A DNA stretch of 64,000 bases from a virus. The position numbers and the translations under genes are program-made. Positions 24,521 through 63,870 of the stretch are shown here, piece by piece; positions within the stretch are counted from its first letter, which is position 1; every line of letters begins with the position of its first letter. Below the pieces are notes generated by a model, which had not been told where the DNA came from, ran no database searches, and saw only the letters and a list, made by a program, of their open reading frames with translations. The DNA lies in the IMG/VR virus record IMGVR_UViG_3300029704_000004. One strand, written 5' to 3'.

Positions 24521-24530
24521 AATTGTATGA

Positions 24531-24554: not shown

Positions 24555-24569
24555 ATAATAACTAAAGTT

Positions 24570-29289: not shown

Positions 29290-29310
29290 GATGTAGTTAA
29301 TATACTTATT

Positions 29311-29336: not shown

Positions 29337-29378
29337 ATTTAAATAACGTTCCAATAATTATTTGCTAAAATTCCATGA

Positions 29379-29402
29379 TTACATACCTTTTACGGGGCGG
29401 CT
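29379..29402 (+). repeat. GC-rich dispersed repeat, copy K (right arm of a doublet)
   Basis: TTACATACCTTTTACGGGGCGGCT. TTTACGGGGCGGCT (29389-29402) is the exact reverse complement of AGCCGCCCCGTAAA (29313-29326). Pairing extends through GG/CC and TATGTA/TACATA. Confidence 0.9.
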
Positions 29403-29430
29403 TTAAACGTTTAATGATTTACATATTGAT

Positions 29431-37131: not shown

Positions 37132-40100
37132 ATGACAAAGAAGTGTAATAGATTAAGAGGTGAACGACCTAAAGCATTTTGGGGTGCTTTAGTTGGTGGT
37201 GCTATGAATTTAATTGGTAGTGCTATTAGTTCTAAATCTCAAGCTAGAGCTATCAGAAGACAAATTGAAGCTCAGAAAGAAGCTGCTCGAACTCAATTAG
37301 AGTTAGCTAATAATAGTAATCTTGCTAGTACGTTGAATAGTTATGTAACTGCTACAAGAAGTTATAATGATGAAGATGATTATAATTTAAAGTATCGTCT
37401 TGGTGGTAATAAACGTTTAGAAAGTAATAGAATTTATATTACTGATGGAGGCAATGCTACTAAGATTGGAAATGATACATACCTTTTACGGGGGGGTTCT
37501 CACGAGCAAACCAATGAGACTGGTCAAACAGGTATTGGTATCAATGTTGGTGGTAACGAAGTTGAAGCTGAGGGAGGTGAAGTTGCTCAGAAGAAGAATG
37601 GTGCTCTAAGAATCTTTAGTGCTCAACCTATTCTTGGTAATGGTATGAGTCCTGCTCAAGCTATTCTTAGAGGTTATAATAAAGATAAAGTATTTAATGC
37701 TCAACAAGCATTTAAGAGAAGAAATGGTCTTAAAGATGATGGAGGTAAAGCAAAATGGGGTATTGGATGGCTTGACAGTTTATTTGGAAACGATAATCCT
37801 AAAAAGAAAACTGTTCATTTTTATAAATCTCAAGCTACAGGTAAAGTATTTAAAACTAGACAAGAAGCTATAGCCGAAAATAATAAATATAAAACTAATT
37901 TAGGTTATAGAAGAACTATCAATAGAGAACGAGAATTTGAAGCTGCTAAAAACAAAAGCGGTAATGAACGAATACCTTATATTAAAGAAAAAGAAATTAA
38001 ATTAAGTAAGGCAGGTAAATTAACAGGAATAAAACTTACTACTAATCAATTAGATAGTATTGCTAAATATGCAAATAAAGTAGGACTTCCTATTAAAACT
38101 GCTTTAGGATTGGTTGGACAAGAAAGTGCTTTTGGAAACTATTTTGGTTATGCAAATAATGCTAAATTTCTAAATGAATATCATAAACAAGGAGAAATGA
38201 ATAGAGATATTTTTGGTATTCCTGCATATAATATAGTAAATTACGAAAGATTACTTCCTAATAAAATACCAACATTGGTAGATGATAATGCCATAAATGA
38301 TAAATACGCAAAAAGAGGTATAAATAAATTTGGATATTCTGCTGTAATCAATGGTGATGAATTAGATAAACTTAAAGTTCAACATGAAGCTTATCCAGGT
38401 CTTGCTAAAAAACGTGCAAAATTTTGGAAAGATATTAAAGTTCCAACTTTGGAATTGGCATTTAAAGCTTATAAAGACCATCCGAATTTATATAATGCTG
38501 GTAATCCTAATCAACAAAATTTAGTTAATAACAAAGCTAATGATGTTTGGGGAAGTCCAGAAATTCAAAAATGGTATAGAACATCTCCTTATGTAAAACA
38601 TCGTCTTGGTGGTCGTTGTAAACTTAGAAATGACGGTTTAACTTCTAAAGATAGAGGTTCTTCTAAACGTCTTTATCCTTCGGTATCATCTAAAGATTTT
38701 GCAGGTGGTGGTAGAAGTTATCCTATTCCAACTAAAGCTGATGCTGTTGATGCTTTAAGACTTGCTGGTCTTCATGGAAGAAGTGATGTTAGAAGTAAAG
38801 TATATAGTAAATATCCTAGTCTTCGTCCTAAAGCTAGAATTGGTGGCAGTTGGAAAGCTCCAGTTTATAATACTAATAAATATAGAGTTTCCAATCGTAT
38901 GAGAAGACAAATAGCAACTTGGGAAGGTTCTGATTTTGCAGGTCAAAATAGAAGATTCAAAGGTGATGCTATTGGTGCTAAAGAAAGAGAACTTAGACGA
39001 ATAATGGGAAGAACTTATAATTATCTTAATGATAATCAAAGAGATTCTCTTAATAGTATTTACTATAATAGTCGAGTTGATACTTTCAAAAATGCTTTTG
39101 GTAAATGGTTTAGAAATTTAAATAGTGCAGTAGATAGAGGTGATGAACGTGCGTTCAATAATAGTCTTGCTGGTATTAGACAAAGTATGACTGTTGGAGA
39201 AAATAGAAAAAGTATGAGTGGTTTAGCTAAACGTAGAGCTTGGGAAAGAAATTGGTTTGGCAATCCTATTCCAATGGATAGTAATGAAACTAAAGCTATT
39301 CTTAATCAACAAGCTGAAGCTAAAATGGTTCAACCTACAGATAATACTAGAGTTGTTATTCAGCCTGAGTATATTGAAATTCCTACTCCTGTCGGTCATG
39401 GTGTTGTTCCAGTAGATAATCCAGACCCTAATTTATTGCAAGGTAATATTAAAGATAATTTAATTAATATGGGAAATAAATTTAGATTAGGACAAAGATG
39501 TGGTGGAAGTACTAGAATGCGTAAAGCCTTAGGTGGTGAAAGCCGCCCCGTAAAAGGCATGAGACGTAAACTTGCTTGGGGTGATGTAACTTATCCTTAT
39601 CGTAGAAATAATAATTTTGATTATTGGGATATTATAGACCAAGAACAAAAAATTAATGATAAAGGTGGTATAAGTCCTTGGACAACATCTAATAAATACG
39701 ATGTTAAAGTTCCTTATGTAATTACTAAGAGTACTCCTACTATTCCTTATACAAGTCAAGTTAGTACTCCAACTTCTGGAGTTTCTGAAAATAAGACTAT
39801 TCCTACTTATACTGGTAATAAGTCGGGTATGATAATTCGTGATGCTGATTGGTATGGTCTTGGAGCTGATTTAGTTTCTAGTATTGGAGGAAGTATTCTT
39901 GGTTTGGGTGCTTATAAAAACTTAGATTTTGATTATAATCTTCCAAACTTTGTAGAGGAAAGTCCAGTTGCTCTTAATACTACTTATCATAATGAAGCTC
40001 AAAAGTCTAATGTTGAACGTAATCGTTTAAATAGTAGAAATAGTATTCTTAGAAATACTATGAGTGGTAGTACTGCTGTTGGTCGTATGCAAGGTGTTGA

Positions 40101-40680
40101 TACTAACGCTTTATATCAACTTAATCAACTTGCTGATGAAAAAACTAATAAAGAAACTGAACTTATGAATCAGAATCTTTTGAACGAACAACAAGTTAGA
40201 GCTAGAAACGCTGCTGCTAGAAATCAGTATTATAATACTGTTGCTAGTATTAAGAATGCTGCTATTCAAGCTAAGAATGAAGCTGAACTTGCTAAGGGAC
40301 AAATTCTTAGTGGAAGTCTTCAAGGTATTGGAAATAGTTTCCAAAACTTTATTAGTCAAGGTCGTCAAAATTATGATGATACTCAAGCTATGCTTATGGG
40401 AGTTGCAGCTTCTGATTATGCTACTCCATCTAGATTACTTGAACTTGGTGTTGATGTTGGTGATGATGCTGCTCTTGCAGGTATTTATCGTTCAGCTATG
40501 AATATTCCAAATCCAGGTGCTAGACCTAAGAGAGAAGACTATTCAGATAATACTGAATATAGTTATGCTCTTACTAGATGGGAGAATCAGAACAAAGCAT
40601 ACCAAAGAAGAAATAGTTATGCTGATTTAATTAAAGGTAGAATGAGTAAAAAGAATCTTATTAAATACGGTATTATTTAA
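37132..40680 (+). CDS. virion-associated protein with two lysozyme-like (SLT-like and GH24-like) segments
   Basis: LGLVGQESAFGNY (Glu at 38122-38124) resembles the lytic-transglycosylase E-S motif. IATWEGS...NDNQRDSLNSIYYNSRVDTF resembles the phage-lysozyme EG...Q-x-x-L-x-S-x-x-(F/Y)N pattern. The C-terminus is a long Q/N/A-rich coiled coil. Confidence 0.5.
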   Translation: MTKKCNRLRGERPKAFWGALVGGAMNLIGSAISSKSQARAIRRQIEAQKEAARTQLELANNSNLASTLNSYVTATRSYNDEDDYNLKYRLGGNKRLESNRIYITDGGNATKIGNDTYLLRGGSHEQTNETGQTGIGINVGGNEVEAEGGEVAQKKNGALRIFSAQPILGNGMSPAQAILRGYNKDKVFNAQQAFKRRNGLKDDGGKAKWGIGWLDSLFGNDNPKKKTVHFYKSQATGKVFKTRQEAIAENNKYKTNLGYRRTINREREFEAAKNKSGNERIPYIKEKEIKLSKAGKLTGIKLTTNQLDSIAKYANKVGLPIKTALGLVGQESAFGNYFGYANNAKFLNEYHKQGEMNRDIFGIPAYNIVNYERLLPNKIPTLVDDNAINDKYAKRGINKFGYSAVINGDELDKLKVQHEAYPGLAKKRAKFWKDIKVPTLELAFKAYKDHPNLYNAGNPNQQNLVNNKANDVWGSPEIQKWYRTSPYVKHRLGGRCKLRNDGLTSKDRGSSKRLYPSVSSKDFAGGGRSYPIPTKADAVDALRLAGLHGRSDVRSKVYSKYPSLRPKARIGGSWKAPVYNTNKYRVSNRMRRQIATWEGSDFAGQNRRFKGDAIGAKERELRRIMGRTYNYLNDNQRDSLNSIYYNSRVDTFKNAFGKWFRNLNSAVDRGDERAFNNSLAGIRQSMTVGENRKSMSGLAKRRAWERNWFGNPIPMDSNETKAILNQQAEAKMVQPTDNTRVVIQPEYIEIPTPVGHGVVPVDNPDPNLLQGNIKDNLINMGNKFRLGQRCGGSTRMRKALGGESRPVKGMRRKLAWGDVTYPYRRNNNFDYWDIIDQEQKINDKGGISPWTTSNKYDVKVPYVITKSTPTIPYTSQVSTPTSGVSENKTIPTYTGNKSGMIIRDADWYGLGADLVSSIGGSILGLGAYKNLDFDYNLPNFVEESPVALNTTYHNEAQKSNVERNRLNSRNSILRNTMSGSTAVGRMQGVDTNALYQLNQLADEKTNKETELMNQNLLNEQQVRARNAAARNQYYNTVASIKNAAIQAKNEAELAKGQILSGSLQGIGNSFQNFISQGRQNYDDTQAMLMGVAASDYATPSRLLELGVDVGDDAALAGIYRSAMNIPNPGARPKREDYSDNTEYSYALTRWENQNKAYQRRNSYADLIKGRMSKKNLIKYGII
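37475..37500 (+). repeat. GC-rich dispersed repeat, copy L (+, G7), intragenic
   Basis: ATACATACCTTTTACGGGGGGGTTCT, read as TYLLRGGS. Confidence 0.9.
39538..39561 (-). repeat. GC-rich dispersed repeat, copy M (-), intragenic
   Basis: The + strand reads GAAAGCCGCCCCGTAAAAGGCATG, read as ESRPVKGM. Confidence 0.9.
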
Positions 40681-40692
40681 AATAAATAAATA

Positions 40693-40724
40693 GTTCTAGT
40701 GAAATTTTGTTCACTAGAACTTTT
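40693..40724 (+). terminator. rho-independent terminator
   Basis: GTTCTAGTGAA-ATTTTG-TTCACTAGAAC followed by TTTT. Confidence 0.8.
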
Positions 40725-40728
40725 ATCG

Positions 40729-40736
40729 TATATTTG
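40729..40736 (+). promoter_or_regulatory. Bacteroidota-type -7 promoter box
   Basis: TATATTTG followed by CA, 28 nt upstream of ATG 40764 and immediately after the terminator. Confidence 0.6.
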
Positions 40737-40763
40737 CATTAGTAATAATAAAAATAAATAGAT

Positions 40764-43331: not shown

Positions 43332-43332
43332 T

Positions 43333-46300: not shown

Positions 46301-49300
46301 CTGCACTTAATGATGCTCTTGATGTTCTTAATCTTACTAAAGGAAAGAATTATCGTTTAGGAGAACAAATTCAAGGTTTCCTTAGTCTTCGTCAAGATAT
46401 ATTTGATAGTCAAGAAAGAGAAGAAAGTCATAATGTTAATAATCCAGATGATAGTAATAATGGTGCTGAACCAGAGAGTACAACTACTCCTCCCCCTAGC
46501 ACGCAAACGACCTCAAATCCTGCGTCACAAGCCACTCAACCTCAGCAGCCTATTAATCAATCGGCAAGCACCCCACAGTCGCCTATAGCGCAAGGAAACA
46601 CGCCTACAGGCAATTCGCAATCACAAAGTGCGCAGCCAACACTACGCAACGAAGTGGGTGAGCGGGTCACAGAATTTTTAAATAGTCATAGTTCTATAAA
46701 ACCAACTAATATAAAAGTAGATAAAAATGGTAATGTTTCTAGTGGTGAACTTACTATTGATAATAATGCTAGAACGGAAGATATATTTGCTTTTATGGGT
46801 AATGCAGATTTATTTGAAAATCCTGAACTCGCTAATATTCCTAGTGCTACTGTAGAAAGAAATCCAAGTTTTGAATATGATGATAATAGTAATCCTATTA
46901 TTATTCAAAAAGGAAAAATTGACGTACAATTAGCAACTGGTCAATCAAATAGTTCAATACCTTTTACGGGGGGGTCTTCTGGTTCTAATGCTAGTACATC
47001 TACACAAGATAATACTAGTACTAATCAACAAACTACTCAGCAACAAGCTCAACCAGCTACTCAACCTCAAGTTGTAGATAGAGCTGAACTTACTGCTAAT
47101 TTTATGGGAAAACTTAGAACTAGTGGTAAAGAAATTAAAGCAGGTAATTTAACTGCTGAAGAGTTTATTAAATCTCTTAAAGATGAAGGTATTGCTCTTG
47201 GAGCAAGTCAAGAAGATATTGACGGAGCTATAACCAGTGTAAAAGCTGTTATGAACAACCTTCTTGGAACTACTTTTGCTTCTAGTGTTGGTGAAGTTAT
47301 GCTTGCTAGTGCAGTAGAGGAATATAAACCAAGTTTATCTTTCGGAAATGAATATAAAGATGCTGCTAATAATATGCTTAAAAATTATGCTTTTGAAGTT
47401 AAACTCAGACAACATAACGGAAAGTATTATGGTAATCTTGAAGATTTACTCCGATATATAAACGAACATAGTCCTAGTAAGAATACTGCTGATTTCATTT
47501 ATAATAGTCTTAAAGAATATCTTAAAACTGAAGAAGCTAAAAAGCAATTTGTAATGCTTGATGCTGATTCAGTTGATGATGCTGAATTTATGACTAATGT
47601 TCGTAAGACTGCTGGTGAACGTAGAGCCGAAGCTATTAAAGCTGGTACTCTTAAACGAGTTAATATTCGTGAGCTTAGTGAAGTAGTTCCTCCTGATAGA
47701 ATTGATGCAAGTTTAGCAGAACTTGATAAAATTAAAGAAGGCGATAAACTTACTGTAAAGAAAGCAAACAAGCTTGCTACTAATACTGATGTTTTATTAG
47801 TTCAACATAATGGTACTACTGTTGGTTGGATGGGTATTCCTACTTTTGATGTATCAACAGGAAGATATATTCAAGTTAACGATTGTATCAAATATACTGT
47901 AGGTAGGTCTGCTGAATATGATGGTGCTGTTAAAGATTGGATTCTTTCTATAGCTGACCCAAAAGATGAAGATAGTAGAAAACTTAACGACCTTCTTTAT
48001 AAAATAGCATTTGATAAGAAATATGATGGTTCATTTGTTGAGAAGTTTAAGAATAATCCTAGAGTTCAGGAAGCTGTAAAGAATGATTTTATAGTTATCA
48101 ATAAAGATAAAGGTTTTACTTATGCTAAAGCTCTTGATGGTATGGTTAAATTATGGAGATATAATCCTAATGTATCTTCTTTTAATCCTATTCCTGAAAG
48201 TATTAAATTGTTCTTTGATAATCTTAGAACTAGTTATCAAACTAGTTTAGCTTTGATTAATAACAATCAAGAACTTACTGTTAGTAAAATAAGTAAAGGT
48301 GAACTTCTTAGACTTGCTCCGCATGGAACTCCTGGAGAAGCATTTAGATTTGCTCAACCTGCAAGTATTGCTATTAGTAGTAAAACTGATGCTAGAATAG
48401 CTTTAGCTAGAAATCTATCTCAAATTGAAGTTAGCGGTAAGCAAACTAATGATAATCTTGGTTTTAGAATGAACCAAACATTAATTGCTATCGATAATGG
48501 AAATGGTACTATAGATTATACTAATGCTTATCCTGTAAATTGGGGAGTTACTAACTATGAGAAAGATGGTAAACTTGTAAATATGCCACATAGTAAAGTT
48601 CTTGCTGATTTAACTAACGCTATTGAAGGGCAAATTATTGATAGACTTACTAATCTTCAGAAAGGTGATAGTTTAGCTAATTGGAATGAGTTTAGAAGTT
48701 TTCTTGATACTCTTCTTGATTATAACAATAATAGTACTCTATTTAAAACTAGTGGTGTTTTTCATCGTAACAATGGACTTACTTATATTAATGCTGGAAG
48801 TAAAGCTGTAGCACTTTATGCTTGTGATACTAAACGTACTGGTGCTCCTACACAACTTGTATTTATGGAACATGGTAAAAAAGTTAGTAGTTATAGCTTG
48901 TTAGATAATGGAGCTGAAGCTGGTAAAGCTCTTGTTCAATTCCTTAGAGAAAACGCTACTGTAAACTTTGCTCACGAACTTCTTAGTAGTGATAATAATA
49001 CTTCTATTCCTTTAAAAGGTTTTGTAAGTAGAAATGCTGACGGAAAACTTGTGATTAATATACCTGAGTATAATGGTAAAAATGGTTTTAATCGTGTTGA
49101 AGAATCATATAATGATTTTATGATTAAGAATGATTTACTTAGAGTAGATTTAGCTCAAGTTGATGGAAGTAACTATTCAAGATTTTCATCTAATATGAAA
49201 GCTAATAGCGTACTTGAATTTACTGTAGGTGATGAGGTGAAACAAGAAGAAGAAAAGCCACTAGAACCCCCCCGTAAAGAGAATGTATCCACCAATACCA

Positions 49301-50349
49301 CTGACCGAGTTAAATCTATTATTGAAAGTGATAGTAAAACTAAAGGTCTTGATATTGCAAAAGCTATTCTTCCTGAAGAAGCTGTAAATCTTCTTAATAA
49401 TGCAGGCAAATTAACTAGTATTTTACCAGAAAATGTTATCTTTGCAAATGACAGAATCGAAAAGTTTAGAGCTTCTGAAAAGAATAACAATATCAACGCT
49501 ATGTATGAAAAAGGAGATATTGTCGTTGGTGATGATTTCTTTAAAGAAACTAGTGGTCGTCAAGTAAGAATACTTATTCACGAAGGTCTTCATAAAAGAC
49601 TTCATGATTATGGTCCTTCTCAACACAGAAAGTTCCTCAATAATATGACTGAAATTTATGATGATTTTAGTAAAGCTATTGATGAAGACCTTAAAGATAT
49701 TGCTGATGGTAATATTAAAGCTGTTAGAGAAAGACGTAACTTTGAAGATACTTTAACTGACGAAGCTATAACAGATTGGCTTAAATACATAGACAGTTTC
49801 AAATTTAAAGAATATGTAGATAGAGGTCAACTTGATAGAGCTAAAGAAGAGTTTATCGTAGAATCTCTTACTAATGTAGAGTTCATTGATTATCTTAATA
49901 AAGTCAAAGTAGATGATGTTGGAGATAAATCTAGACATAGAACTGCTTGGCAAATGATTATGGACTTTATCAATAAATTGTTTAGACTTGATATAGCTGA
50001 AGGAAGTCTCAGAGAAAAAGAGTATAATGCATTTGCTAAAGCTTTAAGTATAGATAAAAATGCTGATACAAATGTTCAAACTGAGACAGAACCTACTATA
50101 GAAGAAACTCAAGATGAACAAGTTGAAGATGAAGTTGTCGAAGATGAAACTCCTACTCCTGGAGGCGATAAAGACATAAATAATGGTGTTGATTTAGATG
50201 ATGTTTATGATGATGATGATGATGTTAATCTATCCTCACGCTCAGAATATCCGTCCCTCTACTCGACAATCGAAAGCCTTCCAATGGAGCAACATTCGCA
50301 ATTTGCCACTTTGCTTGCGTCAGGTGACATTTCGATTACATGCAAATAA
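43333..50349 (+). CDS. giant virion/cargo protein (2338 aa) with C-terminal HExxH zincin-like motif
   Basis: HEGLH at 49579-49593 lies within RQVRILIHEGLHKRLHDYG. There is an N-terminal hydrophobic segment (WWASNMPSIMSSVTLLLP) and P/Q/S/T-rich linkers. The protease assignment is motif-level only. Confidence 0.55.
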   Translation: MDFEEIKNMATNGVSYINPSPSRSKKHPSPKILNSLDPIKIAELTTGFADREINEGLTSGKVLTNQADKADQLRHYGVTPNASIVDVDKVLAESQSNLRKLGSAVSQAVVSEIGLGTVRGAADLFDLIGNVVTGNAANNDYTNPVSEKIQEWQDYFNTEVAPIYADPNLDITNGGLTNFGWWASNMPSIMSSVTLLLPSTAATKGLQWLAKASAASKLGTATRNGIKALVGIDRALGKEGRTLNKFQQGVKTLVDAPINGLGARTGQFVETGLNAALSRTMENYQEAQGVYSDVFNTATDTLNKMTPQEFTEFVNKNQDIYNEAGGDNASKEDIARVIAQKSANQDFLTNYVNIGSDILQLYGLRNMWKGLKNGVSSSTLTSAARNARRTLGKTPEEIAEMEAKQSFLKKAGQKIIDKALDEKTVIAGELSEGLEEAVNYISQMEGTHLGNVYLGLESDSAFDDRLQKYMRSGGLWDSVFWGVMGGVVFHHLGSGFGRISQTLKDRADSKTDERTGEGKSKSMFSLSETSEIKARKANIESWNNSIENYWNQMSQIKDGNNPFSVSNEDKTFNNDLDKEAAAQRAYDELLTGMTLNAAHNGNLGMLRSYMSSDDVRKAMVDKGVTDEANSKVDQQKALDKMDEVTASYEAELKKLVNLSEAVRVTKHTDDILPIEFLQSIATNNVVNKQYNDKINTQIDELDKQINTAFDNEDIKNILGQDYTPEQYQIAASTALLTNELRTLQAERSRLLSDKKKMNNISTKVAVDNINKLMNKYQDMIDTNSLRYALHESLQGAYNDEGKVQSFTNQASTTLANILSGKTNSGLWLTDDDIVEELKNFAKKFSVSPRIAEFENPTDIVNQVREHGTYLRRINQKLQATDKIGVNGTDGTLSALLVNKTALELRRAYNESKMVNNADELATEISFMNNTMNEGRKKAIDSAYETITKLSDKYGNDKFAARIGDAIGAYYQRSKDDIDSILDFMNEDDKSALNDALDVLNLTKGKNYRLGEQIQGFLSLRQDIFDSQEREESHNVNNPDDSNNGAEPESTTTPPPSTQTTSNPASQATQPQQPINQSASTPQSPIAQGNTPTGNSQSQSAQPTLRNEVGERVTEFLNSHSSIKPTNIKVDKNGNVSSGELTIDNNARTEDIFAFMGNADLFENPELANIPSATVERNPSFEYDDNSNPIIIQKGKIDVQLATGQSNSSIPFTGGSSGSNASTSTQDNTSTNQQTTQQQAQPATQPQVVDRAELTANFMGKLRTSGKEIKAGNLTAEEFIKSLKDEGIALGASQEDIDGAITSVKAVMNNLLGTTFASSVGEVMLASAVEEYKPSLSFGNEYKDAANNMLKNYAFEVKLRQHNGKYYGNLEDLLRYINEHSPSKNTADFIYNSLKEYLKTEEAKKQFVMLDADSVDDAEFMTNVRKTAGERRAEAIKAGTLKRVNIRELSEVVPPDRIDASLAELDKIKEGDKLTVKKANKLATNTDVLLVQHNGTTVGWMGIPTFDVSTGRYIQVNDCIKYTVGRSAEYDGAVKDWILSIADPKDEDSRKLNDLLYKIAFDKKYDGSFVEKFKNNPRVQEAVKNDFIVINKDKGFTYAKALDGMVKLWRYNPNVSSFNPIPESIKLFFDNLRTSYQTSLALINNNQELTVSKISKGELLRLAPHGTPGEAFRFAQPASIAISSKTDARIALARNLSQIEVSGKQTNDNLGFRMNQTLIAIDNGNGTIDYTNAYPVNWGVTNYEKDGKLVNMPHSKVLADLTNAIEGQIIDRLTNLQKGDSLANWNEFRSFLDTLLDYNNNSTLFKTSGVFHRNNGLTYINAGSKAVALYACDTKRTGAPTQLVFMEHGKKVSSYSLLDNGAEAGKALVQFLRENATVNFAHELLSSDNNTSIPLKGFVSRNADGKLVINIPEYNGKNGFNRVEESYNDFMIKNDLLRVDLAQVDGSNYSRFSSNMKANSVLEFTVGDEVKQEEEKPLEPPRKENVSTNTTDRVKSIIESDSKTKGLDIAKAILPEEAVNLLNNAGKLTSILPENVIFANDRIEKFRASEKNNNINAMYEKGDIVVGDDFFKETSGRQVRILIHEGLHKRLHDYGPSQHRKFLNNMTEIYDDFSKAIDEDLKDIADGNIKAVRERRNFEDTLTDEAITDWLKYIDSFKFKEYVDRGQLDRAKEEFIVESLTNVEFIDYLNKVKVDDVGDKSRHRTAWQMIMDFINKLFRLDIAEGSLREKEYNAFAKALSIDKNADTNVQTETEPTIEETQDEQVEDEVVEDETPTPGGDKDINNGVDLDDVYDDDDDVNLSSRSEYPSLYSTIESLPMEQHSQFATLLASGDISITCK
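46953..46978 (+). repeat. GC-rich dispersed repeat, copy N (+, G7), intragenic
   Basis: TTCAATACCTTTTACGGGGGGGTCTT, read as SIPFTGGSS inside a low-complexity linker. Confidence 0.9.
49261..49290 (-). repeat. GC-rich dispersed repeat, copy O (-, C7 variant), intragenic
   Basis: The + strand reads CTAGAACCCCCCCGTAAAGAGAATGTATCC, read as LEPPRKENVS. Confidence 0.9.
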
Positions 50350-50358
50350 GATTAATCG

Positions 50359-50391
50359 CTCGCTGAGAAATAAGCCTCTCAGCGAGTTTTT
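50359..50391 (+). terminator. rho-independent terminator between the two giant ORFs
   Basis: CTCGCTGAGA-AATAAGCC-TCTCAGCGAG (perfect 10-bp stem) followed by T5. Confidence 0.8.
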
Positions 50392-50421
50392 AAAATATTA
50401 AATAACTTAATATAGATAGTT

Positions 50422-53400
50422 ATGGCTAATAATTGTAGTTTAAAATTTAATGAAACTAAGGTTTACACCAACCTTAAAGCTGAAGTTGGAAACGATGATG
50501 TTTTATTTAACAGCTTAATGAGTGCAGTAATTGATGGTTCTAGACCATCTGGTTTTAACAAGGAATTTGAAACCTATTATGCTAATAATTATGGTTCTAT
50601 TCCTAATACAAATGATGAAAGTAAAGAAGTTGCTACTGCTATTCAAAATTTTTATAAGAATAGAAATTTTAATGTAAATGAGCATACAACTGATTCTGCT
50701 TTCATTTCTGATGTTAAGTCTAAAGGTTATACTAGTACTGCTGCTAAAACTTGTGGTATTAGAACTACTGGTAATTTGATGTTAGCATTCTATCATAACG
50801 ATTTAATTAAAGGTCGTCTTGAAGAACATGCTGAAGATAGAAAAGATAATCTCGCAAATAGAGTTATAAATCGTATGTTGGGAGCTGTAGCAACAAATAT
50901 TCTTGAAGCTAGAAAAGTAGAAGCTACAAAAGAAGAAATTGCTAAAGTTCGTAAACAACTTATGAATACTAAGAGTAATGATTTTGTTAAGCTTGAGGAT
51001 GAAGTTTCTAAAACTACTCCTCAACTTAGAAATCAATTTGCTACTCTTAAAGATATGCTTTCTGATAAAGTTAAATATTTTACTCAAGTTATTCAAACTG
51101 ATGATAGACTTGGCGAAATTCGTTTTAAGAAAGATGATGATTTAAGTCAGCAAGAAGCAGATTGGAGTGAAAGTTTCGATATAGAAGATGATGATGATTT
51201 AAATCTTAACAATGCTGCTGATAATGCAAGTAACAACGAAAAAGATACTACTACTGCTCGTTGGGAAGATAATGGAACTAAATCTGACTTTATGAAAGAT
51301 TTTAGTTTTGCTGTTCGTAGTTATCTTTCAACTATTCCTAAACTTAGTAGTACAGAAGTAAGTGCTGACGGTAAATATCAATATGATAAAAGTAATCCTC
51401 TTGGAATGGTAGATTATATGGATTTTAAAGTCGTAAACTCTGCAATTAGAGGAGATATTGAAACTACTAATATTGATGCTTTTTTAAAGAAACTTGAAGA
51501 TATTGCAAAATCTAATAAAGAATATGCTGGTCTTGCTTATTTAGCTAATGACCTTAAAAAGAAACCAGATTTTGCTTATAAATTATTTCAAGTTTATAGA
51601 AGAAGAACTATAAGAAAACAGCAAGTTCGTATTGATGATAATTCTGTTTCTCCTACTAGAAGTAATAATCGTGCAGATAAACTTGAAACTTTAAGAATTA
51701 ATTATCTTAATGATATTAAGTCAACTGCTCTTAATATCATGATTGAAGATACTAATGATATTCTTGGAGCAATTAAAACTAAAATAGATGATTATAAGAC
51801 ACTTCAAAAAACTAAAGGATTTGATTTAAATAAACAAGCATTAAGTGCTGATATTATCAATGCTATTGCTAGTCGTTTAAAGCAATATTATCCTTCTCTT
51901 GATAAAGCTGCTATTGAAAGATTCGCTAGACTTAATGGAAAAGTTGACGGTAAAACTCCAAATATTGCTAATAATCTTACTCAACTTTATGGTTATCTTG
52001 AGAATACTGCAAAGTATGCTAACGAAACTCTTAATAATAAGCGAAATCTTGATAATAGATTTAAAGAAGCTAACAAGATTAAAGATAAGAAAGCTAAGAA
52101 AGAAGCTCTAGATAGTGTTCGTGAAGCTTATAAACAAGGCTATCTTTCTACTAATACAAAAGCTTATGCTCTTGAATTAGCTAAATCTTTAGCTCCATAT
52201 TCTGTAGTTAATATTGATTCTAATTCTACTAATGCTCTTGGTAATCAGTCTGCTGACCAAATTAATGACAGTATGATTACTAATTTCCTTAATGCAGTTA
52301 AAGCAACTTTAACTGAACAGCAAAAAGATGGAAGCAAAGTTTCTACTGAACTTATTAATTATGGAAAGTATAAGTTCCAAGGAGTACAATACAATCTTAG
52401 TGGTATTCTTATGGAACATCGTGATGAGAATGGTGCTGTAATTAATTATGGTCTTTTCTACAAAGATAAAGACGGTAATATTCAAATCACTAATTATGCT
52501 AGAGATATGGTTAATATCTCTTTGTTCGATGGTGCAGGAAATCCTAATACTAAAGATAATGTTCTTTATTCAGGTATGTCTAAAGGAGATTATGTATATA
52601 CAGGATTTGCTCAATACTTTAATACAGAGCAAAATCCTAAGATGCTTATGGGTGATTACTTTATGCGTATTCCTTCTGATGCTCCAAAGAACTTTGTAGT
52701 TCATGCTCCTAGATATAAAGTTGATGGCTTATTCTCTAAGATGCACGCTATTAAAAATGCTAAAGGTGAAGTTATAGCTAAAGAAGTTAGTGTTGATGAT
52801 ATTAACGAAAATCATCCAATAGTACAACAGTTTAGAAATATATTCAAACAGGAACTGTTGGATATGGTAAACTTTATCAACATTGTATTTGAAGTTAAAG
52901 AAAATACAGAAACTCTTGAAGATGGTACAGTTGTTGACCAAAGAGGAAGAATTGTATTTAATAATGACAATACTCCAATGTTTAAAAAAGGTTGGGGATT
53001 AGATGCTGAATCTGCTCGTAGAGTATTTGCTAATTATCATATTGGTAAAGGACATAAACATTTTATTGAAAAGAAAGGTGATGGTTGGGCATTTAATGGA
53101 CTTCTTTTTAAAGATGATAGATTTGTTCTTACAGATTATAAAACTGGTACAACTACAAAGTATGGTGACGATTTATTAAAATACTTGTTTCCTTCTCTTT
53201 ACGGGGGGGCTAGAGATGGCTTTATTCCTTTCACTACTAACGCTAATGGTGAAGTAGAACTTAACCTTACAGCAGACCAAGAAGCTATGATTACTAGAAT
53301 GGTTAAAGGTTTTGTAACTGACTATTCTAATAATGCTATTACTCGTATGAGCGAATATAAAGACCTTGACATTAATAATCTTATTAATGAAAAGAATAGT

Positions 53401-56400
53401 ATTGATTTTGCTCTTAATCATAGACTTATGTATATTGCTTTTAATGATATATTTGAAGGTGATACTAAGTTTTATAAAGATACTCAGACTTTCTTGAAAA
53501 GAAGTAAAGAGTCTCAAGCTAGTGGTGTTCCTTATGGTTTTGTTGATACAAGTCTTGACCTTAGAGAAAATAGCACAATAATTCAAGGAGCTTTTCTTAA
53601 TACTCCTGAAGTTCAATCTAGACTTAAAGCTATCGGTCTTGATGTTCAACAAAAGACTAAGTTTAATGGTATTACTATTAAGAATACTGTTAGAACTAGT
53701 GAGGAATGTAAAGTTGCTAAAACTTATCCAGATGGTAAAGTTGAAGGAGAAGATGGTATTCTTGTAAAAGACTTAGTAAAGAATTCTAAACTTACTCTTG
53801 AGCAAGCTAGAGATTTGATGGGCGGTCCTATTATGTATGATAATAATGGTAAGCCAAAACTTAATGCTGACGGAAGTTATAGACGTAGTGGTGGTTTTAG
53901 TAATACTACTATTAACGATGCTCAATCTTATATTACTTTTGAAGAATGGATTCGTCGTATTGCTGGTAGAGGTCAACTTAATGATTATCTTCCTTTGATT
54001 GAAGCTATTCAAGATGAAAGTAAAGAGATTCCTGCTGACTTATTGAAGAAGTTTGTGCAAGTACAGAAGAACTTCTACTATGACCAATATTATGATGATA
54101 AACTTAATACTATTGCTCCTCGTCAAATTAAGAATGCTGAATTTGTTCTTGTTCCAAGATTTATTAGAGGAACTCAACTTGAACAAGTTTATGAAGCAAT
54201 GAAAGCTAATAAGATTGACCAGCTTAATACTGAGGAAACTAGTAAAGCAGGTAAAGCTAGAGTACTTACTATCTTTGATGAGAAGACTGGTGAAGTTACT
54301 GAAGAGCATCTTAAAGATTTCAACAATAAAGCTGAAGATTATCGTGAGGAATACGATTATAATCATCTTTATACTCAGCAAGAAACTCCTCAACACATGA
54401 ATGCTAAGAATAAAGCTGGTATTCAGATTATGAAGAAGATACTTGATAATATTGATAGTAATAGTCCTCTTCATGCGTATAAAGAAGATTTCTTCAATAT
54501 GTATGTTGCTAATATTAAAGATAGTTTTAATAAGCTTGTTGATGAATTAAAGATTTCTCTTGATGAAGATGGTAATATTAAATTTGATGAGAGTGGAAAT
54601 ATTACAGGAGTAGATATGCAAGTATTCTTTGATAAACTCAAAGATGAGTGTATGAGACTTGGTCTTGATAGTAATATGATGGACTTTGTTACCCTTAATG
54701 CTAGTATGCCTATAGCTGCTAATGGTTGTCCAAATCCTGTAATGCCTACTTATCTTAGTAATGTAGTTAATAAGCTTGAGAGTATTTCCCAAGCTATGTT
54801 TAATAGTGCTATTACTCGACAAGAACTTCCTGGTTTTCATGCTGCTCAGATTACTAATGTTGGTTTTAAAGCAACTAAAGACCAAGTTAGTTATTCTAAA
54901 GAATTAAAGTATCATCCAAATGGTGAACGCTATATTGAAATAATGCTTCCTGCTAGTAATTTTGGCTTTGCTAAAAATGCTGATGGTACTTATAAAAAGA
55001 GCAAAGAAGAACTTCTTAAAGAACTTCAAGATGCTGGTCTTGATACTCTTATTGGTTATCGTATTCCAACTGAGGGTAAACAATCTGTTTGTGTAATGAA
55101 AGTAGTTGGTTTTCTTGATGATGCTCAAGGTTCTACTATTGTTGTTCCTGATGATTGGGTTTCTCAAACTGGTTCTGACTTTGATATTGACTCTGTATAT
55201 GGTATTCAATATAATACTTATATTGGAAGAGATGGTAATATTAAAAGAGCTACTTGGAAAGATACTGTAACTGAAAATGATTGGCTTAATTATGTAAGAA
55301 GAGAAACAGGTCTTAGACTTTCTGGTATCGACAATGAAAAATTTGAAAATATTAAGGCTGATGCTAAAGCTTCCACAAAAGCTGAGGCTAGAGATGCTAG
55401 AAAAGCAGAAATAGCAGAAATTAAAAATAGATTTGATGAAATTGAATCAGAAGCTTATTTTAATCTTGATGACGATACTAAAGAAGTTATTAAACTTATT
55501 CACGAAAAGATTAATGAAGCTTATGGACCAAAACCATCTAAAGCCAAGTATCAAGAACAGCTTGAAGTTGAAATATCTACTCTTACTGGTAGATTAGAAG
55601 AGTTCAAAGATATTTATATTGAAGAAGAATTAGATGCTATAAAAGATTATATTGAAGCTAAAAAACAAATTCTTAATAATGTTATAAATGGATTTGAACT
55701 ATCTGATGATTTTGATTATAATGCTATTAAATCTGAAAAGATTAAGAGTGCTATAAAAGCTTATAAAGATGAACAATTACGTTTAGCTAAACAAATTGCT
55801 AGAAGTTCTAGACTTTTACAATTTGAAGCTTATAAGAAGAAGTTTGATAGTGATGTTATTGGTAACAATACTCGTGAAGCTCGTAATAATAGACTTCTTG
55901 ATGATATGATTCATATTCTGCAAGCTAATGAATCTCTTGAAGAGAACCTTTCTCGTTCTAATTTTGAGAGTATTATTGCAGCTCGTGATAAAGTCATGAA
56001 TCCAGTAGTTAAAGAAGTTCGTGAAGCTAGAAGTCCTTATGACTTTCTTGACCAAGCTGCTTATCAAGAAGATGTAATGAGTGGTGCTAAACTTAAAGCG
56101 TTTAGTGTTACTAGAGATACTTTCTGTTCTGTATGTAATACAGTTCATCCTCATATTACAGATAAATATACTATTAAAGTTGCATATAGTAAAGATAAGT
56201 ATAATCTTGAAGAACTTCAAAAGAGATTTGAGAAAGTAGAAGAAACTGATGAAGGTTATGTTGTTACACATAATACTCTTGGTTGGACAAATGATAATAA
56301 AAATGTAGATGGTTATATTCTTACTGCATACAGTTCTCAGACTACTGCTCATATTCTTGATGCTGTTAAGGAAGGTGCTATTCCAAATGTAAATGATTTT

Positions 56401-59400
56401 ACTTTTGCAGTATATAAAACTCTTGCTGATATTGGTAGTAATTATGATACTGCTGTAGGTTTTATTATGCAACCTGCTATTACAAAAATTGTAAATGCTT
56501 ATAATGCTAATAAATCTATTTATTCAGATAAACATAATAAACCAATAGAAGAAGCTATTAGGTCATTAGGCAAAGAGATTCTTAATACTTATCATATTAA
56601 TACTGATAAAATGAATCTTGGTGAAATAGTTGCTAGAGTTAATGGATTACTTGGTACTAAGTATAGTTTAGATAAACATAATGATATTATTTTATCGCCT
56701 GATGAGTTAGCAAAGAGATTGCTTAATGATAAAAACCGCCCCGTAAAAGTAAGTATATATCAACATGATTGGGGTGTTCTTTTTGCTTATAATGATTTAG
56801 CTAAACTTTCTGATAAAATTGGTTCTACTGCAAGGGTTTGTAATCCTGATAGATTTGGTGCTAAACAAAGTATTTTCGCTACTCGTAAAGTATTTAATGA
56901 TATTGCAGATTTAATTGAAGATGAAAATCCAGCTTTAGTTGTTGGAACTTCTTCTATTGTTAATAGTATCTATGCAGGTTATGACCCTACTAAAGGTTTA
57001 AGAAGCTATATTACTAGTAATGCTAAAAGTGCATATCCTAGTCTTAATGCTTTCTTAAAATATGCTAGTGCTCCTTCTATTCTTGTAAATAGAATGTTGT
57101 TTGATACAGAACAAGATAATTTTAGAATAGCTAATAGAGCTATTGAAGTTATAAACGGTAGTAATAATGTTACTGAGAAAGATTATAAAGGTTTTACTCA
57201 GTATATTCTTAATGCTGCTTATAAACAAACAGATGCTGTTGTAAACAACTATACTTATGATGTAGAGAAGAAACAAACTATAGTAAATAAAGAATTTGAT
57301 GAAACGGATGAAGCTCTCAGAATTATGGGTTATGGTTGTACTCCTGATTTTACTTTTAATGTTAAAGATGTAACTAATCCTACACAAGAAGAAGTAAATG
57401 CTTGGAGTAAACTTAGTCCTGCTCAAAAAATTAGTTGGCTTAAATCTAATAGTGTTGATGCTGGTATATTCAATTATATAAATACTAATTTATTTAATGA
57501 ATATGAAATGAATAGAGATGGTCAAAGTCGTCAAACTATTCGTTTTAACGAAGATGCCGTTGATAATGAAACTGCTTATAATCTTTTTGATACTGCATTT
57601 AGTTCAGATAATCCATTAGTTAAACTTGCTGCTATGGATATGGTTAAGTATGCTTTTGTCGCAGAAGGTTTTAAAATAGGTAGAGGTGCTATTAATAAAT
57701 GTATTAAAAATACTGCTCTTCGTGATGAAAACACTTTTGTTCAATTTAATGGTGCTAGAACTAGTATTATTGCTCAAATTAAAGCTCAAGTAGATAATGC
57801 AGTTTCTAGAACTGATTTAGTTGAACAATATCTTAGAAGTGACCCAGGAGTTAGTAATGTTCCTCATAAATTTATGAATAAAAAATATAGTTCTATGTTC
57901 GAAACTGTAACTAGAGGAATGTACGAATTTAGTTTGGACGATAAAGATAATGCTATCGAATTTGGATTTGCTAGAGAAAGTAATGCAGAGTTCGTTCCAA
58001 TACAATTTAATAATTATATTTATATTACTAAAAAAGAAGGTAACGAAAGCGTTACTAGACTATATAAAATTGTTTCTCCTGACCTTGGTTCTGGTATAGG
58101 TTTTGCTTATCCATTAAATGGTTTGGAAGCTGGTGAAGATAGAGAAGTTAGTATTAATAATGCTAATAATAGTGTTCCTCTTCCAAGTTATTATGAAGCA
58201 GTTATTGATAACTTGATGAACAGTGAAGTTGCTGATTATACATTAGATGAATTAAATGAATTGTATAAGAAGCATGTTGCTACAACAAAAGTCAATAAAG
58301 TCAAAGCTGTTACACATTTTGATATAATGTCAGATGCTAATAATGATAATGGTGGAGCTAAAGATGCTATTAATAAGATTATTAAAACTTTCAACAATTA
58401 TGAAGGTAATAGAATCTTTATTCAAAATATGTATCTTTATGGTAAAACTAAATATGATTCATTTACTCCTCCTATTCATGTTGAAGGTGAAACTATTTCT
58501 AATGGTGGTGAACCTATTAGTATTAATGGAAACTTCTTATTTAGACGTGCTACTAAAGTAAGTATTGAAAGTCATAATATTCGTACAGGAGAACATATTG
58601 AGGAAAAACCTCAACTTGTTGAAATAGTTAGGGAAACTCCTATGGCTAGTTCTCGTGAAGAGGTAACTCTTGGTTCTGCAAGTTCTAAACTTGAACAAAG
58701 TCTTAGAACTACAACTGATTCTTTTGAAAAGAATATAGTAAAAGAACTTAATCGTAGAAGTGGTCTTGGAGATATAGAAGCTGGAAAACTTATGCGTCAA
58801 CTTCGTGGAGAAGGATTTGAACAAAGTACTAAAGGCTATAAAGAGTTTAAAGATAGCGTATTCTATAGTGGTTATGCTTATCTTAAACATAAAGTTAATA
58901 GTACTCTTGGAAAGTTTAGTCAATTCTACAGAGATGAAAATGGTAATTACTTTGCTATCAATAGTCCTGAAGTAATCAATGTTATTAAGAATAATCCTGC
59001 TTTACAAAGACAGTTCCTTGAAACACTTGCTGATGCTAATGCTATTGTTGATAAATTTGGAATTATTAATCAGATTAAAGCTGATGAAATTGAGAATCCT
59101 ACTTTGAAATTCTACATTGATGAAATGCAGAAGATGATTAAGGAACTCAGTAATAGTTCTATTATTGATGATGCAGAAGTTAAGTTTGGACTTGATTATC
59201 TTCAGAAACTTAGTAATGACCCTAATATTCAAAATGGTCTTATTAGTATATACGATGGTTTCCATTCTAGTGGTTGGCTTGATGCTTGGTTTGGTGATTT
59301 ACAAGAACAAGGTAACAGTCTTGTTCAAGTAGTTACTAGAAAAGTAATGGCTGATATTCGTGCTAAAGAAAGTCAAGCAAAAGATTTTGCTGTAGCTTTT

Positions 59401-63843: not shown

Positions 63844-63870
63844 TATAGCCGCCCCGTAAAAGGAATGTAT
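63844..63870 (-). repeat. GC-rich dispersed repeat, copy R (-)
   Basis: The + strand reads TATAGCCGCCCCGTAAAAGGAATGTAT and starts 13 nt after the stop of the 4469-aa ORF. Confidence 0.9.

Follow-up and report, generated by a model that had tools for sequence, protein, structure and literature searches.

Among the closest described systems to the repeated element reported here are the stoperators of Cluster A mycobacteriophages, the sites of the L5 repressor gp71, which are 13 bp long, nearly all share one orientation with respect to transcription, and occur in temperate phages whose repressor has been identified. Like them, our element, found in a 64,000-nt stretch of viral DNA (IMG/VR record IMGVR_UViG_3300029704_000004, hereafter the window), forms a few dozen asymmetric sites genome-wide, in short intergenic spacers as well as genes, with a lineage-specific consensus, largely kept positions, and a co-evolution with one phage protein that we infer here. 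Unlike them, it measures about 25 bp, occupies both strands, its neighbouring copies being inverted, and occurs in a family without a known repressor or known lysogeny. The stoperator features compared here are reportedly those described by Brown et al. (1997) and by Mavrich & Hatfull (2019). The promoters of T7-group phages resemble the element in size (23-25 bp), number (about 17-37 copies), high conservation within a genome, and the succession of a T-rich or AT-rich part and a G run; furthermore, these phages and ours all encode their own polymerase. As in the promoters of T7, T3 and SP6, the consensus is lineage-specific and changes in concert at orthologous positions. T7 promoters, however, all point the way the genes run, whereas about half of our copies are reversed and 65-81% are intragenic in five of six genomes, against 15 of 28 in the sixth, cr8_1.

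Bacterial repeats offer further parallels. The REP and BIME elements of enterobacteria and pseudomonads are likewise short and GC-rich with a species-specific consensus, are found alone or in inverted doublets, and often lie just past stop codons; REPs, though, are extragenic, clear imperfect palindromes with a cognate RAYT transposase, whereas our element is 54-81% intragenic, its hairpin is not significant in the window's genus, and a RAYT-like gene was not found. Rickettsia palindromic elements (RPEs) also stand in frame within ORFs, at sites where an additional peptide can be accommodated by the protein, but they are 100-150 bp long, decay over time and have no known function, while our element has 25 nt, is held to a genus consensus, and shifts its reading frame between genera. 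Chi and the ssiA/ssiB sites of RSF1010 are G-rich signals read on a single strand that act on a DNA-tracking enzyme, as we propose for our element; two-way traffic requires both orientations of such signals, and ssiA/ssiB itself is an inverted doublet. Chi differs in its length of 5-8 nt, in its reader, the host RecBCD/AddAB, and in its abundance in the host's own DNA, whereas bacterial genomes contain our element only as 17 scattered single matches in 596 Gb, none beyond chance. Known ssi signals depend on stable ssDNA hairpins, whereas the element folds, with DNA energy parameters, at just 0 to -2.2 kcal/mol with z-scores that are not significant.

The window is about 98% identical to the crAss-like phage cr8_1 (Intestiviridae) and carries exactly 18 copies of the motif tACATaCCTTTTACGGGGSGGCTAGA (about 25 nt), organized as a pyrimidine tract, TAC and a G run with conserved flanks. 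The core TTACGGGGSGG, with one mismatch allowed, gave 18 matches where 0.06 were expected by chance, and a scan with a position weight matrix (PWM) returned exactly the same copies, every one scoring at least 22.6. The scores are bimodal: none falls between 12 and 22, and the maximum in shuffled sequence was 11.6. Copy coordinates are those of the 25-nt PWM. In the genus of cr8 and the window the solo sense copies carry seven Gs (G7) and the antisense copies GGGGCGG, the choice following the coding strand. No prior description of the element was found in the searched literature.

Six of the copies form +/- pairs within the three largest ORFs of the window, which encode 4469, 2338 and 1182 aa. 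These pairs had been pointed out in an earlier note, and all six sites, named L to Q, are present within 0-2 nt of the positions given there. The smallest of the three proteins is a homologue of the crAss001 cargo protein gp45; its gene holds L (G7; 37477..37501, +; aa ~119, encoding TYLLRGGS) and M (GGGGCGG; 39538..39562, -; aa ~804, encoding ESRPVKG). Copy L is retained in cr8_1, many IMG/VR relatives and cr271_1, and copy M in close relatives and a second genus-level group, being missing from cr271_1. For the lysozyme-like segments that this pair was said to bracket, sequence searches of the protein against Pfam, NCBIfam and PDB gave no signal. The 2338-aa RNAP-associated/zincin fusion gene contains N (G7; 46955..46979, +; aa ~1211, encoding PFTGGSS), located in a low-complexity linker, and O (G7; 49262..49286, -; aa ~1979, encoding EPPRKE), the sole antisense G7 copy, some 100 aa N-terminal to HEGLH (nt 49579, aa 2083); the pair lies just upstream of the HExxH region, as had been described. 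In the 4469-aa virion RNA polymerase gene, P (G7; 53190..53214, +; aa ~926, encoding LYGGARD) and Q (GGGGCGG; 56731..56755, -; aa ~2105, encoding KNRPVKV) indeed bracket the DFDID motif (nt 55177, aa 1586). The three sense copies of the giant ORFs use three different reading frames.

The arrangement is kept in related genomes. The first sense/antisense pair of the polymerase gene brackets DFDxD in all six genomes compared, with the sense copy about 610-670 aa ahead of the motif in five of six genera and the antisense copy past it in all six, its distance varying from +47 to +1066 aa. Similarly, the zincin-fusion gene has an antisense copy 95-120 aa and a sense copy 870-950 aa ahead of HExxH, each in five of six genomes; the linker position of copy O is common to five of six genera and is read there in another frame (TTPVEE, RPPVED). 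When orientations were shuffled with positions fixed, the '+,-' order in all three giant ORFs had a probability of 0.019, and it recurs in five other genera, in line with the view that three of three was no accident. The reason offered for it, the bracketing of catalytic modules, was not supported: copies L to Q belong, with nothing to set them apart, to a family of ~25-bp cis-elements that runs through the whole genome, and the intragenic copies are located in low-complexity linkers, since nowhere else can a protein accommodate a fixed 25-nt sequence.

At the start of the window, the intergenic copy 619..643 (-) begins 10 nt past the stop of ORF 289..609, and another, 1399..1423 (+, with a G8 run), lies between ORFs 858..1382 and 1493..1990. 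Copy 4976..5000 (+) stands 5' of the large terminase gene within the small ORF 4897..5253, and 10188..10212 (-) is intergenic, about 155 nt past the portal gene stop. The gene preceding the major capsid gene contains 10759..10783 (+) about 270 nt from its start, and an intragenic sense copy at a similar offset is also found there in cr271, ZA, RJ and crAss002. Further on, the intergenic copy 16286..16310 (+, GGGGGGT) ends 26 nt 5' of ORF 16337..16960, and 17234..17258 (-) occupies the extreme 5' end of ORF 17219..17812, starting about 27 nt past the stop of the preceding small gene. Two doublets, with GGGGCGG in both arms and G-rich ends outward, are situated at 24494..24557 (24494-24518, -; 24533-24557, +), ending 12 nt ahead of ORF 24570, and at 29310..29405 (29310-29334, -; 29381-29405, +), ending 25 nt ahead of ORF 29431 and with an orthologous doublet in cr271_1. 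Finally, 63844..63868 (-) starts 12 nt past the stop of the polymerase gene, and its orthologue in cr271_1 lies 3 nt past the stop.

Six genera from three subfamilies of Intestiviridae have the motif, at 17-37 copies per genome, in versions of their own: ACATaCCTTTTACGGGGSGGCTAGA in cr8 and the window, CTCTTCTACGGGGGAGCT in cr271, ATCCTCYACGGGGRGT in p-crAssphage ZA and cr11, CTCCTYTACAGGGGAG in Rudgehvirus, and CTCCTTTAYGGGGGAA in crAss002. Shuffled sequence, examined for the ZA and cr271 versions, gave no copies. Besides the giant genes, the genome-wide set includes intergenic DNA and the UDG, helicase and primase genes. Copies often occupy orthologous positions across genera, and the encoded amino acids, even the reading frame, shift there to match the version of the genus: in one genus the UDG copy is read as PFTGGL, in another as SSTGEL; the helicase copy is read as SRPVKE and STPVEE (nucleotide offsets 486-511 in four genera), and three genera have a copy in the primase gene, at offsets 818-919. 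Since the proteins follow the motif version of their genus, selection acts on the nucleic acid; Intestiviridae keep the element under nucleic-acid-level selection, and the protein adapts to the intragenic copy. Opposite the G run, which is invariant, the pyrimidine tract varies between C and T.

Orientation is far from random. The copies are equal in number on both strands, about half of them pointing against the sole coding strand, and neighbours are inverted in 121 of 163 cases over the six genomes. Less than 500 nt apart there are 28 inverted pairs and one direct pair, where about 12 of each would be expected, an excess of inverted pairs (28 vs 12) beyond what avoidance of direct repeats alone explains; same-orientation copies almost never lie less than 2 kb apart, and the median spacing is 4.6 kb for direct and 2.6 kb for inverted neighbours. 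In three of the six genomes the widest interval between copies falls short of that obtained by random placement. Within ORFs the G-rich ends point toward each other, a polarity opposite to that of the intergenic doublets (24499-/24542+ and 29315-/29390+), as had been claimed. At the large divergent non-coding junction of ZA, RJ and cr11 the doublets face outward, each G end toward one gene module. Three operon-like blocks (e.g. 24533...29334) are preceded by a sense copy, ahead of their first start, and followed by an antisense copy beyond their last stop.

How these features fit together is best accommodated, tentatively and with a probability of about 0.4, by copies that serve as orientation-sensitive binding sites for a phage-encoded factor acting on DNA-tracking enzymes. 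All copies in a genome change in concert and would therefore be read by one co-evolving factor, which is probably encoded by the phage; no candidate for it emerged when selected cr8_1 proteins were scanned with Pfam and PHROGs. In the window's genus no stable self-structure was found (RNA fold z = -0.4, DNA fold 0 kcal/mol), and therefore we take the element to be a linear, asymmetric duplex-DNA site, a mode of binding that we infer from the absence of other signals. Because both strands bear copies, neighbours are inverted and, in some genomes, the spacing is even, we propose that a bound site would act as a polar mark, whether barrier, loader or modulator, on enzymes travelling the DNA both ways, which may be the replication or recombination machinery, or transcription as with the mycobacteriophage stoperators. 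Giant genes of 3.5-13 kb would have to hold internal copies, which would fit only inter-domain linkers, and it is this confinement to linkers that would make them resemble module brackets. Four observations sit less easily with this reading, the excess of close inverted pairs being one of them. The G-rich strand forms an RNA hairpin that beats shuffles in cr271 (z = -3.3) and Rudgehvirus (z = -2.2), which, like the C/T drift opposite the G run, is as expected of an RNA helix and counts against it; and the strand-dependent choice of G7 or GGGGCGG suggests a transcript-level or strand-specific effect that a symmetric duplex-binding model does not predict.

Best placed among the alternatives, though unlikely, is that the copies are promoters of the phage's own giant RNA polymerase, with transcripts starting in the G run and running outward, and antisense RNA arising from opposing copies. 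The T7-like features listed above speak for it, the low-GC, T-rich pyrimidine part and G run being reminiscent of ...TATAGGGAGA, and the phage encodes a polymerase without known promoters, while no early-promoter motif was found for phi14:2. Sense copies 18-75 nt ahead of several start codons would suit promoters, as would the outward doublets of the divergent junction; the opposing and intragenic copies would not, and the post-polymerase copy of cr8_1 and cr271_1 faces away from the downstream tRNA-Gln. This copy and the junction doublets imply opposite polarities, and therefore no single polarity fits every site. Ranked after promoters, and also unlikely, is an action at the RNA level, by sense/antisense stems (of the rRNA processing stalk, RNase III or BIME type) or by a small UACG-loop hairpin. 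Every sense/antisense pair can form a duplex, at -21 to -45 kcal/mol, and the alternation of copies, the excess of close inverted pairs, the matching GGGGCGG arms of both window doublets, the bounded operon-like blocks and the G-strand hairpins (in crAss002 as well as cr271 and Rudgehvirus) all agree with it. But adjacent partners are no more alike than other sense/antisense pairs in the six genomes, contrary to the long-range pairing put forward in the earlier note: the RNAduplex energies of L/M (-38 kcal/mol), N/O (-33) and P/Q (-22) are inside or below the non-partner range, and the best complementarities of the region join non-partners, L with O and O with P. The G-G mismatch foreseen for a G7 arm against CCGCCCC is there in L/M and P/Q, not in N/O, where G7 meets C7, and for solo copies of this genus it is built in, which hardly favours stems. 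Pairing alone also fails to explain a genome-wide consensus that includes the flanks, ribosomes would unwind stems in translated ORFs, and the hairpin, no better than shuffles in the window's genus, is mismatched at its fourth stem pair in half of the copies, with no within-genome covariation found.

Placed next, and doubtful too, is strand-specific initiation of DNA synthesis, through priming or origin sites of the ssiA/ssiB type or nicks like those of phage T5, needed on both strands throughout the genome. It would account for equal, alternating copies, evenly spaced in three of six genomes, for inverted doublets flanking AT-rich spacers, including the divergent junction (the assumed origin region), and for a placement governed by sequence tolerance, ORF interiors included; the motif could co-evolve with the phage primase or with an HNH nuclease, whose gene adjoins the ligase gene in cr8_1 and cr271_1. 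Set against this are the lack of a DNA fold, the annotation of the cr11_1 primase as DnaG-like, such primases recognising sites of about 3 nt, and HNH gene positions that are not conserved across the family; nicks in the DNA of crAss-like phages have not, to our knowledge, been reported. We consider it improbable that this is a selfish or once mobile element (of MITE, REP or RPE type) that would have spread through the genome, surviving where harmless and functionless for the phage. The close doublets do look MITE-like, with 25-bp inverted ends and a short spacer (60-170 bp in total) that is AT-rich in most doublets shown, CTAG adjoins some ends, and copies are enriched in intergenic DNA and, as with RPEs, in permissive linkers. 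Decaying copies, however, would diverge, whereas positions are kept across three subfamilies while the sequence tracks the genus consensus, and the bimodal scores leave no degenerate copies; moreover, neither a transposase, RAYT or HUH gene nor a consistent target-site duplication was found, and 66 related loci showed no insertion polymorphism of copies. Least probable by far is that the pairs are recombination junctions for module exchange, inversion or excision, as once suggested, a reading already largely refuted by the breakpoint and deletion-junction data. A homology boundary at 603-609 does adjoin copy 619..643 in four relatives plus cr8_1, and one relative diverges over a short patch around N, while another has a small gap at Q. 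Yet that boundary coincides with a gene end, and most clusters of homology breakpoints (3595-3830, 21400, 25045-25827, 28030-28145, 37742-37762, 38596-38618 and 55867) lie away from copies. All 66 loci are colinear, without any inversion, and the five junctions that resemble deletions map to three distinct indel sites, all off the copies: 25121/28145, 18754/25045 and ~37745/38615.

The six sites in the three largest ORFs of the window lie where the earlier note had placed them and on the strands it gave: 37477-37501 (+) and 39538-39562 (-) in the 1182-aa ORF (copies L and M), 46955-46979 (+) and 49262-49286 (-) in the 2338-aa ORF (N and O), and 53190-53214 (+) and 56731-56755 (-) in the 4469-aa ORF (P and Q). 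The repeat is longer than the 14 positions first ascribed to it, since the aligned copies give a motif of about 25 nt, tACATaCCTTTTACGGGGSGGCTAGA, with a G run that is mostly G7 or GGGGCGG. The motif core occurs 18 times in the window against 0.06 expected, and a position-weight scan picks out the same 18 and no others, every one scoring at least 22.6, with no score between 12 and 22 and a maximum of 11.6 in shuffled sequence. Degenerate 'missing partner' copies that would complete a perfect alternation of strands were also considered and are ruled out, as the same scan finds none. The copies are split evenly between the strands (nine + and nine -) in DNA of about 30% G+C in which all genes, including every long ORF, are on the + strand, and 7 of the 18 are well inside ORFs. 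The '+ then -' order in all three giant ORFs is indeed non-random (p = 0.019 by orientation shuffling), and the earlier note was likewise right that both intergenic doublets have the opposite polarity and that a G7 arm pairs with CCGCCCC at the cost of one G-G mismatch. These doublets, at 24494-24557 and 29310-29405, have inverted ends of 25 bp each, and their flanks (gaaag/ttata and tctag/cttta, respectively) carry no duplication. A block of six ORFs (24533-29334) is flanked by a sense copy, i.e. one with its G-rich strand as the coding strand, ending 12 nt upstream of the first start codon, and by an antisense copy starting 18 nt after the last stop, both of the GGGGCGG type; comparable flanking is seen at 16286-17258.

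Over about 70% of a test segment the DNA has 98% identity to 'uncultured phage cr8_1' (NC_055877; Crassvirales, Intestiviridae, Obtuvirinae, Fohxhuevirus); in reverse complement, the window corresponds to about 3.4-64 kb of cr8_1, the structural module. The 1182-aa protein is a homologue of the crAss001 cargo protein gp45 (PDB 7qog_M, E = 1e-18); the 'lysozyme-like segments' formerly attributed to it could not be reproduced. Other Intestiviridae have an 'RNAP-associated protein fused to zincin protease' to which the 2338-aa protein is matched, and the virion RNA polymerase is the 4469-aa protein, whose DFDID lies at aa 1586. Positions 1-602 are without counterpart in cr8_1; homology with cr8_1 and four IMG/VR relatives begins at 603-609, where ORF 289..609 ends in its stop codon, shortly ahead of the copy at 624. 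Several larger segments are missing in related loci: an in-frame cargo-gene segment of about 870 nt between L and M (37743-38615; loci L036 and L080), two whole genes (25122-28144; loci L013 and L076), and a block of 6.3 kb (18754-25045; locus L032). The cargo gene also contains an island of about 310 nt (37432-37742, aa ~101-204), with copy L near its 5' end, that has 86-92% identity in IMG/VR contigs of another genus-level group, the rest of whose DNA is unalignable with the window at the blastn settings used. Third-codon divergence in the island is only about 20%, and it could be a recently exchanged or an unusually constrained segment.

The element recurs throughout the family in lineage-specific versions. 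In cr8_1 about 27 copies (13 sense and 14 antisense) are spread over both gene modules, and 17 to 37 copies are present in each of five other genomes, where the motif reads CTCTTCTACGGGGGAGCT in cr271_1 (Hacihdavirus), ATCCTCYACGGGGRGT in CrAssphage ZA (p-crAssphage type) and cr11_1, CTCCTYTACAGGGGAG..TTACA in Rudgehvirus jaberico, and CTCCTTTAYGGGGGAA in crAss002. In IMG/VR the motif occurs many times per contig only in contigs of crAss size and about 30% G+C; single matches in GC-rich contigs look like chance. The 18-mer ACCTTTTACGGGGSGGCT gave only 17 scattered single matches in 596 Gb of bacterial genomes, by our estimate at or below chance, and for this 18-mer a host repeat or host Chi site is rejected; Chi sites are over-represented in the host chromosome, whereas this 18-mer is not so in bacterial genomes. 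The Bacteroides phage crAss001 (NC_049977), of the Steigviridae, is without the Intestiviridae motif; over-represented there is another 9-mer, CTTCTGGAG, found 27 times where 0.36 is expected. Its copies are on both strands, 26 of them inside ORFs, and are often embedded in CTCC-TTCT-GGAG; in gp44, gp45 (cargo) and gp50 (RNAP) the sense copy precedes the antisense one. This 9-mer may be an analogous element in a second family of Crassvirales. A literature search by motif strings and by topic over 8 million papers and preprints, which logos present only in figures would escape, turned up no description of the element.

Orthologous places in different genera hold copies, each of its own genus's version. 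The copy in the UDG gene is translated as PFTGGL in cr8_1 versus SSTGEL in cr271_1, and that in the helicase gene (nucleotide offsets 486-511 in four genera) as SRPVKE versus STPVEE; the primase gene has its copy at offsets 818-919 in three genera, and the gene preceding the major capsid gene has one some 200-280 nt from its start in five genomes. In the zincin-fusion gene the antisense copy (O in the window) lies 95-120 aa, and the sense copy (N) 870-950 aa, ahead of HExxH, each in five of the six genomes and both in low-complexity linkers. The peptide at O, EPPRKE in cr8_1, becomes TTPVEE, RPPVED or VSPIEE elsewhere, which shows that the motif is translated in different frames from genus to genus while the DNA element stays. 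That P and Q bracket the DFDID motif was correctly noted earlier, and the bracketing extends to all six genomes, in each of which the first sense/antisense pair of the polymerase gene encloses DFDxD. The sense copies in the giant ORFs encode TYLLRGGS, PFTGGSS and LYGGARD, which are three different frames, so the motif is not a repeated peptide; together with the changed frame at O this rules out a protein-level repeat. Comparison of the genomes points firmly to the nucleic acid as the target of selection on the copies. Intragenic copies might also mark former gene ends at fusion junctions; all detectable homologues of the zincin-fusion gene are fused too, and the cargo gene, split in cr271_1, shows almost no alignable similarity there. 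Each of the six sites L to Q thus belongs to a conserved family of cis-elements that has lineage-specific versions and is selected at the nucleotide level; the six sit in protein linkers and follow genome-wide rules of orientation.

As to these rules, sense and antisense copies are about equally frequent, and neighbours tend to be inverted (121 of 163 pairs; per-genome permutation p from <0.0002 to 0.24). Among neighbours less than 500 nt apart 28 are inverted and one is direct, random placement giving about 12 of each, and the median distance is 4.6 kb for direct and 2.6 kb for inverted neighbours (Mann-Whitney p = 1e-6). In doublets less than 150 nt apart, mostly intergenic, the G-rich ends point outward 16 times and towards each other 4 times; in pairs 150-500 nt apart, located in ORFs, they face each other in 7 cases and point outward in 1. 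Within ORFs holding at least two copies, neighbouring pairs are sense-antisense (23), antisense-sense (8) or antisense-antisense (2), and never sense-sense; because many sites are orthologous, all these orientation counts overstate the number of independent events. 'Sense first, then antisense' is no proof of dependence on the direction of transcription, since an inverted pair looks alike from both strands. In cr8_1 (p = 0.03), ZA (p = 0.002) and crAss002 (p = 0.003) the widest interval without a copy falls short of that under random placement, and not so in the other three of the six genomes.

The earlier note had proposed that each pair of copies forms a long-range duplex or serves as a junction for module exchange, and neither proposal fared well. 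Duplexes of -21 to -45 kcal/mol are possible for every combination of a sense with an antisense copy, and the proper partners hold no privilege in this range: L/M reach -38, N/O -33 and P/Q -22 kcal/mol, P/Q being the weakest in P's row. The longest and best inverted matches within 37-57 kb join L with O and O with P, and over the six genomes adjacent partners are no closer in sequence than random sense/antisense pairs. Non-partners thus match better, and partner-specific pairing is rejected. In the window's genus, moreover, the variant depends on the strand: copies whose G strand is the coding strand mostly carry G7 (56 G, 39 C, 5 A) and those on the other strand mostly GGGGCGG (93 C, 12 G), so that a mismatch is built into distant pairs. 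Module exchange at the copies is hardly credible. Homology breakpoints, mapped with cr8_1 and 66 IMG/VR loci, gather at sites other than the copies, the sole exception being 603-609 beside copy 624, which is also a gene end; the 66 loci contain zero inversions and zero non-colinear arrangements, and five deletion-like junctions represent three distinct indel sites, none at a copy. Local folding of single copies, attractive at first, draws the pyrimidine tract, UACG and the G run of the G-rich strand as a hairpin of 5-6 bp. As RNA it folds better than shuffles in cr271_1 (z = -3.3), Rudgehvirus (z = -2.2) and crAss002 (z = -1.85), and no better in the genus of the window (z = -0.4; -2.6 kcal/mol for the window consensus) or in ZA (z = -0.9); as DNA no stable structure forms (0 kcal/mol for the window consensus). 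The fourth stem pair is mismatched in half of the copies in the window's genus and ZA, and no covariation is seen within genomes. Across genera the fifth pair is C-G, T.G or T-A and never C.A, which is compatible with pairing, albeit in six lineages only. From the folding and covariation results the local hairpin is rejected for the window's genus, where we treat the element as a linear motif and an RNA hairpin as a minor possibility; RNA stems or hairpins as the general explanation seem to us rather unlikely.

Among known kinds of signal, stoperators, T7-type promoters, REP/BIME, RPE and Chi/ssi come nearest, and the element departs from each in at least one defining property. Promoters of the phage polymerase are an unlikely explanation: T7-like promoters lie upstream of genes and are co-oriented with them, whereas the copies occupy both strands about equally. 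The paper on the phi14:2 polymerase, from another crAss group, describes a different, sigma70-like middle-promoter motif and found none for the polymerase-dependent early transcripts. Outward doublets do occupy the large non-coding junction between divergently transcribed modules in ZA (46486-46617 of locus L143, ZA 96486-96604) and RJ, i.e. Rudgehvirus jaberico (35901-36026 of locus L145, RJ 85901-86014), both with a long AT-rich spacer, and in cr11_1 (11911-12052 of locus L146, with a long spacer), a junction that may be an origin or a region of divergent promoters. Priming or nick sites are quite unlikely as the common function. A search for a trans-acting factor with Pfam, PHROGs and PDB, covering primase, HNH and neighbouring proteins, yielded nothing specific. 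A selfish element is very unlikely. MITEs show presence/absence polymorphism, whereas no indel junction falls at any copy in the 66 related loci. REP/BIME are extragenic and built on a stable imperfect palindrome, whereas 54-81% of the copies in the six genomes lie within ORFs of at least 100 aa, so that location does not agree, and the window consensus has no significant RNA hairpin (a moderate one in some other genera). Pfam finds no HUH (Y1) domain of the RAYT type, or any transposase, in 10 proteins of the cr8_1 replication module, and a 56-aa ORF annotated 'transposase' is without a Pfam match. Invertible segments of the Hin/Gin or Bacteroides Mpi type need a recombinase; no invertase is among the proteins scanned, and all ORFs on the reverse strands of the bracketed segments are short. 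Intrinsic terminators combine a stable hairpin with a U tract, whereas single copies in the window's genus form no stable hairpin and the doublet stems run into ttataat and ctttaaa, not a T run. No Rfam family matches the 64-kb window at gathering score. Stoperators share with the copies the many asymmetric sites throughout the genome and a consensus that co-evolves with the lineage, but have one orientation relative to transcription and an identified repressor; the copies have both orientations, and no cognate repressor was found among the proteins scanned.

From the concerted change at all sites, including those in essential genes, we infer a single co-evolving recognition factor that would read all copies, probably as asymmetric duplex sites. 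The use of both strands, the inverted neighbours and the spread of the copies suggest that they are polar marks for enzymes travelling the DNA in both directions, whether in replication or recombination or as a transcription barrier of the stoperator type. We put the probability of this mechanism at roughly 0.4. Pairs would then occur in the giant genes on account of the length of these genes, in which copies find room only between domains. The strand-dependent choice of G7 or GGGGCGG and the excess of close inverted pairs are left unexplained by the polar-mark model. More tentatively, the Intestiviridae, and possibly all Crassvirales, may possess an undescribed genome punctuation: a 25-bp signal, specific to the lineage and sensitive to orientation, that recurs at intervals of a few kb on alternating strands and runs through essential genes, and by which a phage factor would steer replication or recombination or bidirectional transcription. 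In one version it would be a phage-private 'self' mark, analogous to Chi. If so, a DNA signal would dictate linker peptides in the proteins of a whole virus family. Among viruses of the human gut the crAss-like phages are the most abundant, and a family-wide cis-element that is conserved in position, co-evolves in sequence and overrides protein sequence offers a direct experimental handle; the cultured relatives crAss002 and Rudgehvirus jaberico carry it. It is also a clean natural case of non-coding constraint within coding sequence, and its genus-specific versions could be used as a simple marker in the classification of crAss-like contigs.

Some minor observations concern individual copies. 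The divergent junction of ZA adjoins a RepL-like gene. Two assemblies (cr8_1 and IMGVR 3300029391_000005) begin 40-100 nt from one and the same doublet. A perfect GNRA-loop hairpin, GGGGAC-GCAA-GTCCCC, stands in an intergenic position at 1437-1452, 14 nt past copy 1408 (1399-1423). The G run varies in length (G8, G9) among intergenic copies of close relatives, and all G-run copies within ORFs have G7 (the variable sites are 1408-1419 in the window, 43-60 in cr8_1, and loci L005 and L049), which could reflect slippage tolerated only outside genes or an effect of poly-G on sequencing or assembly.
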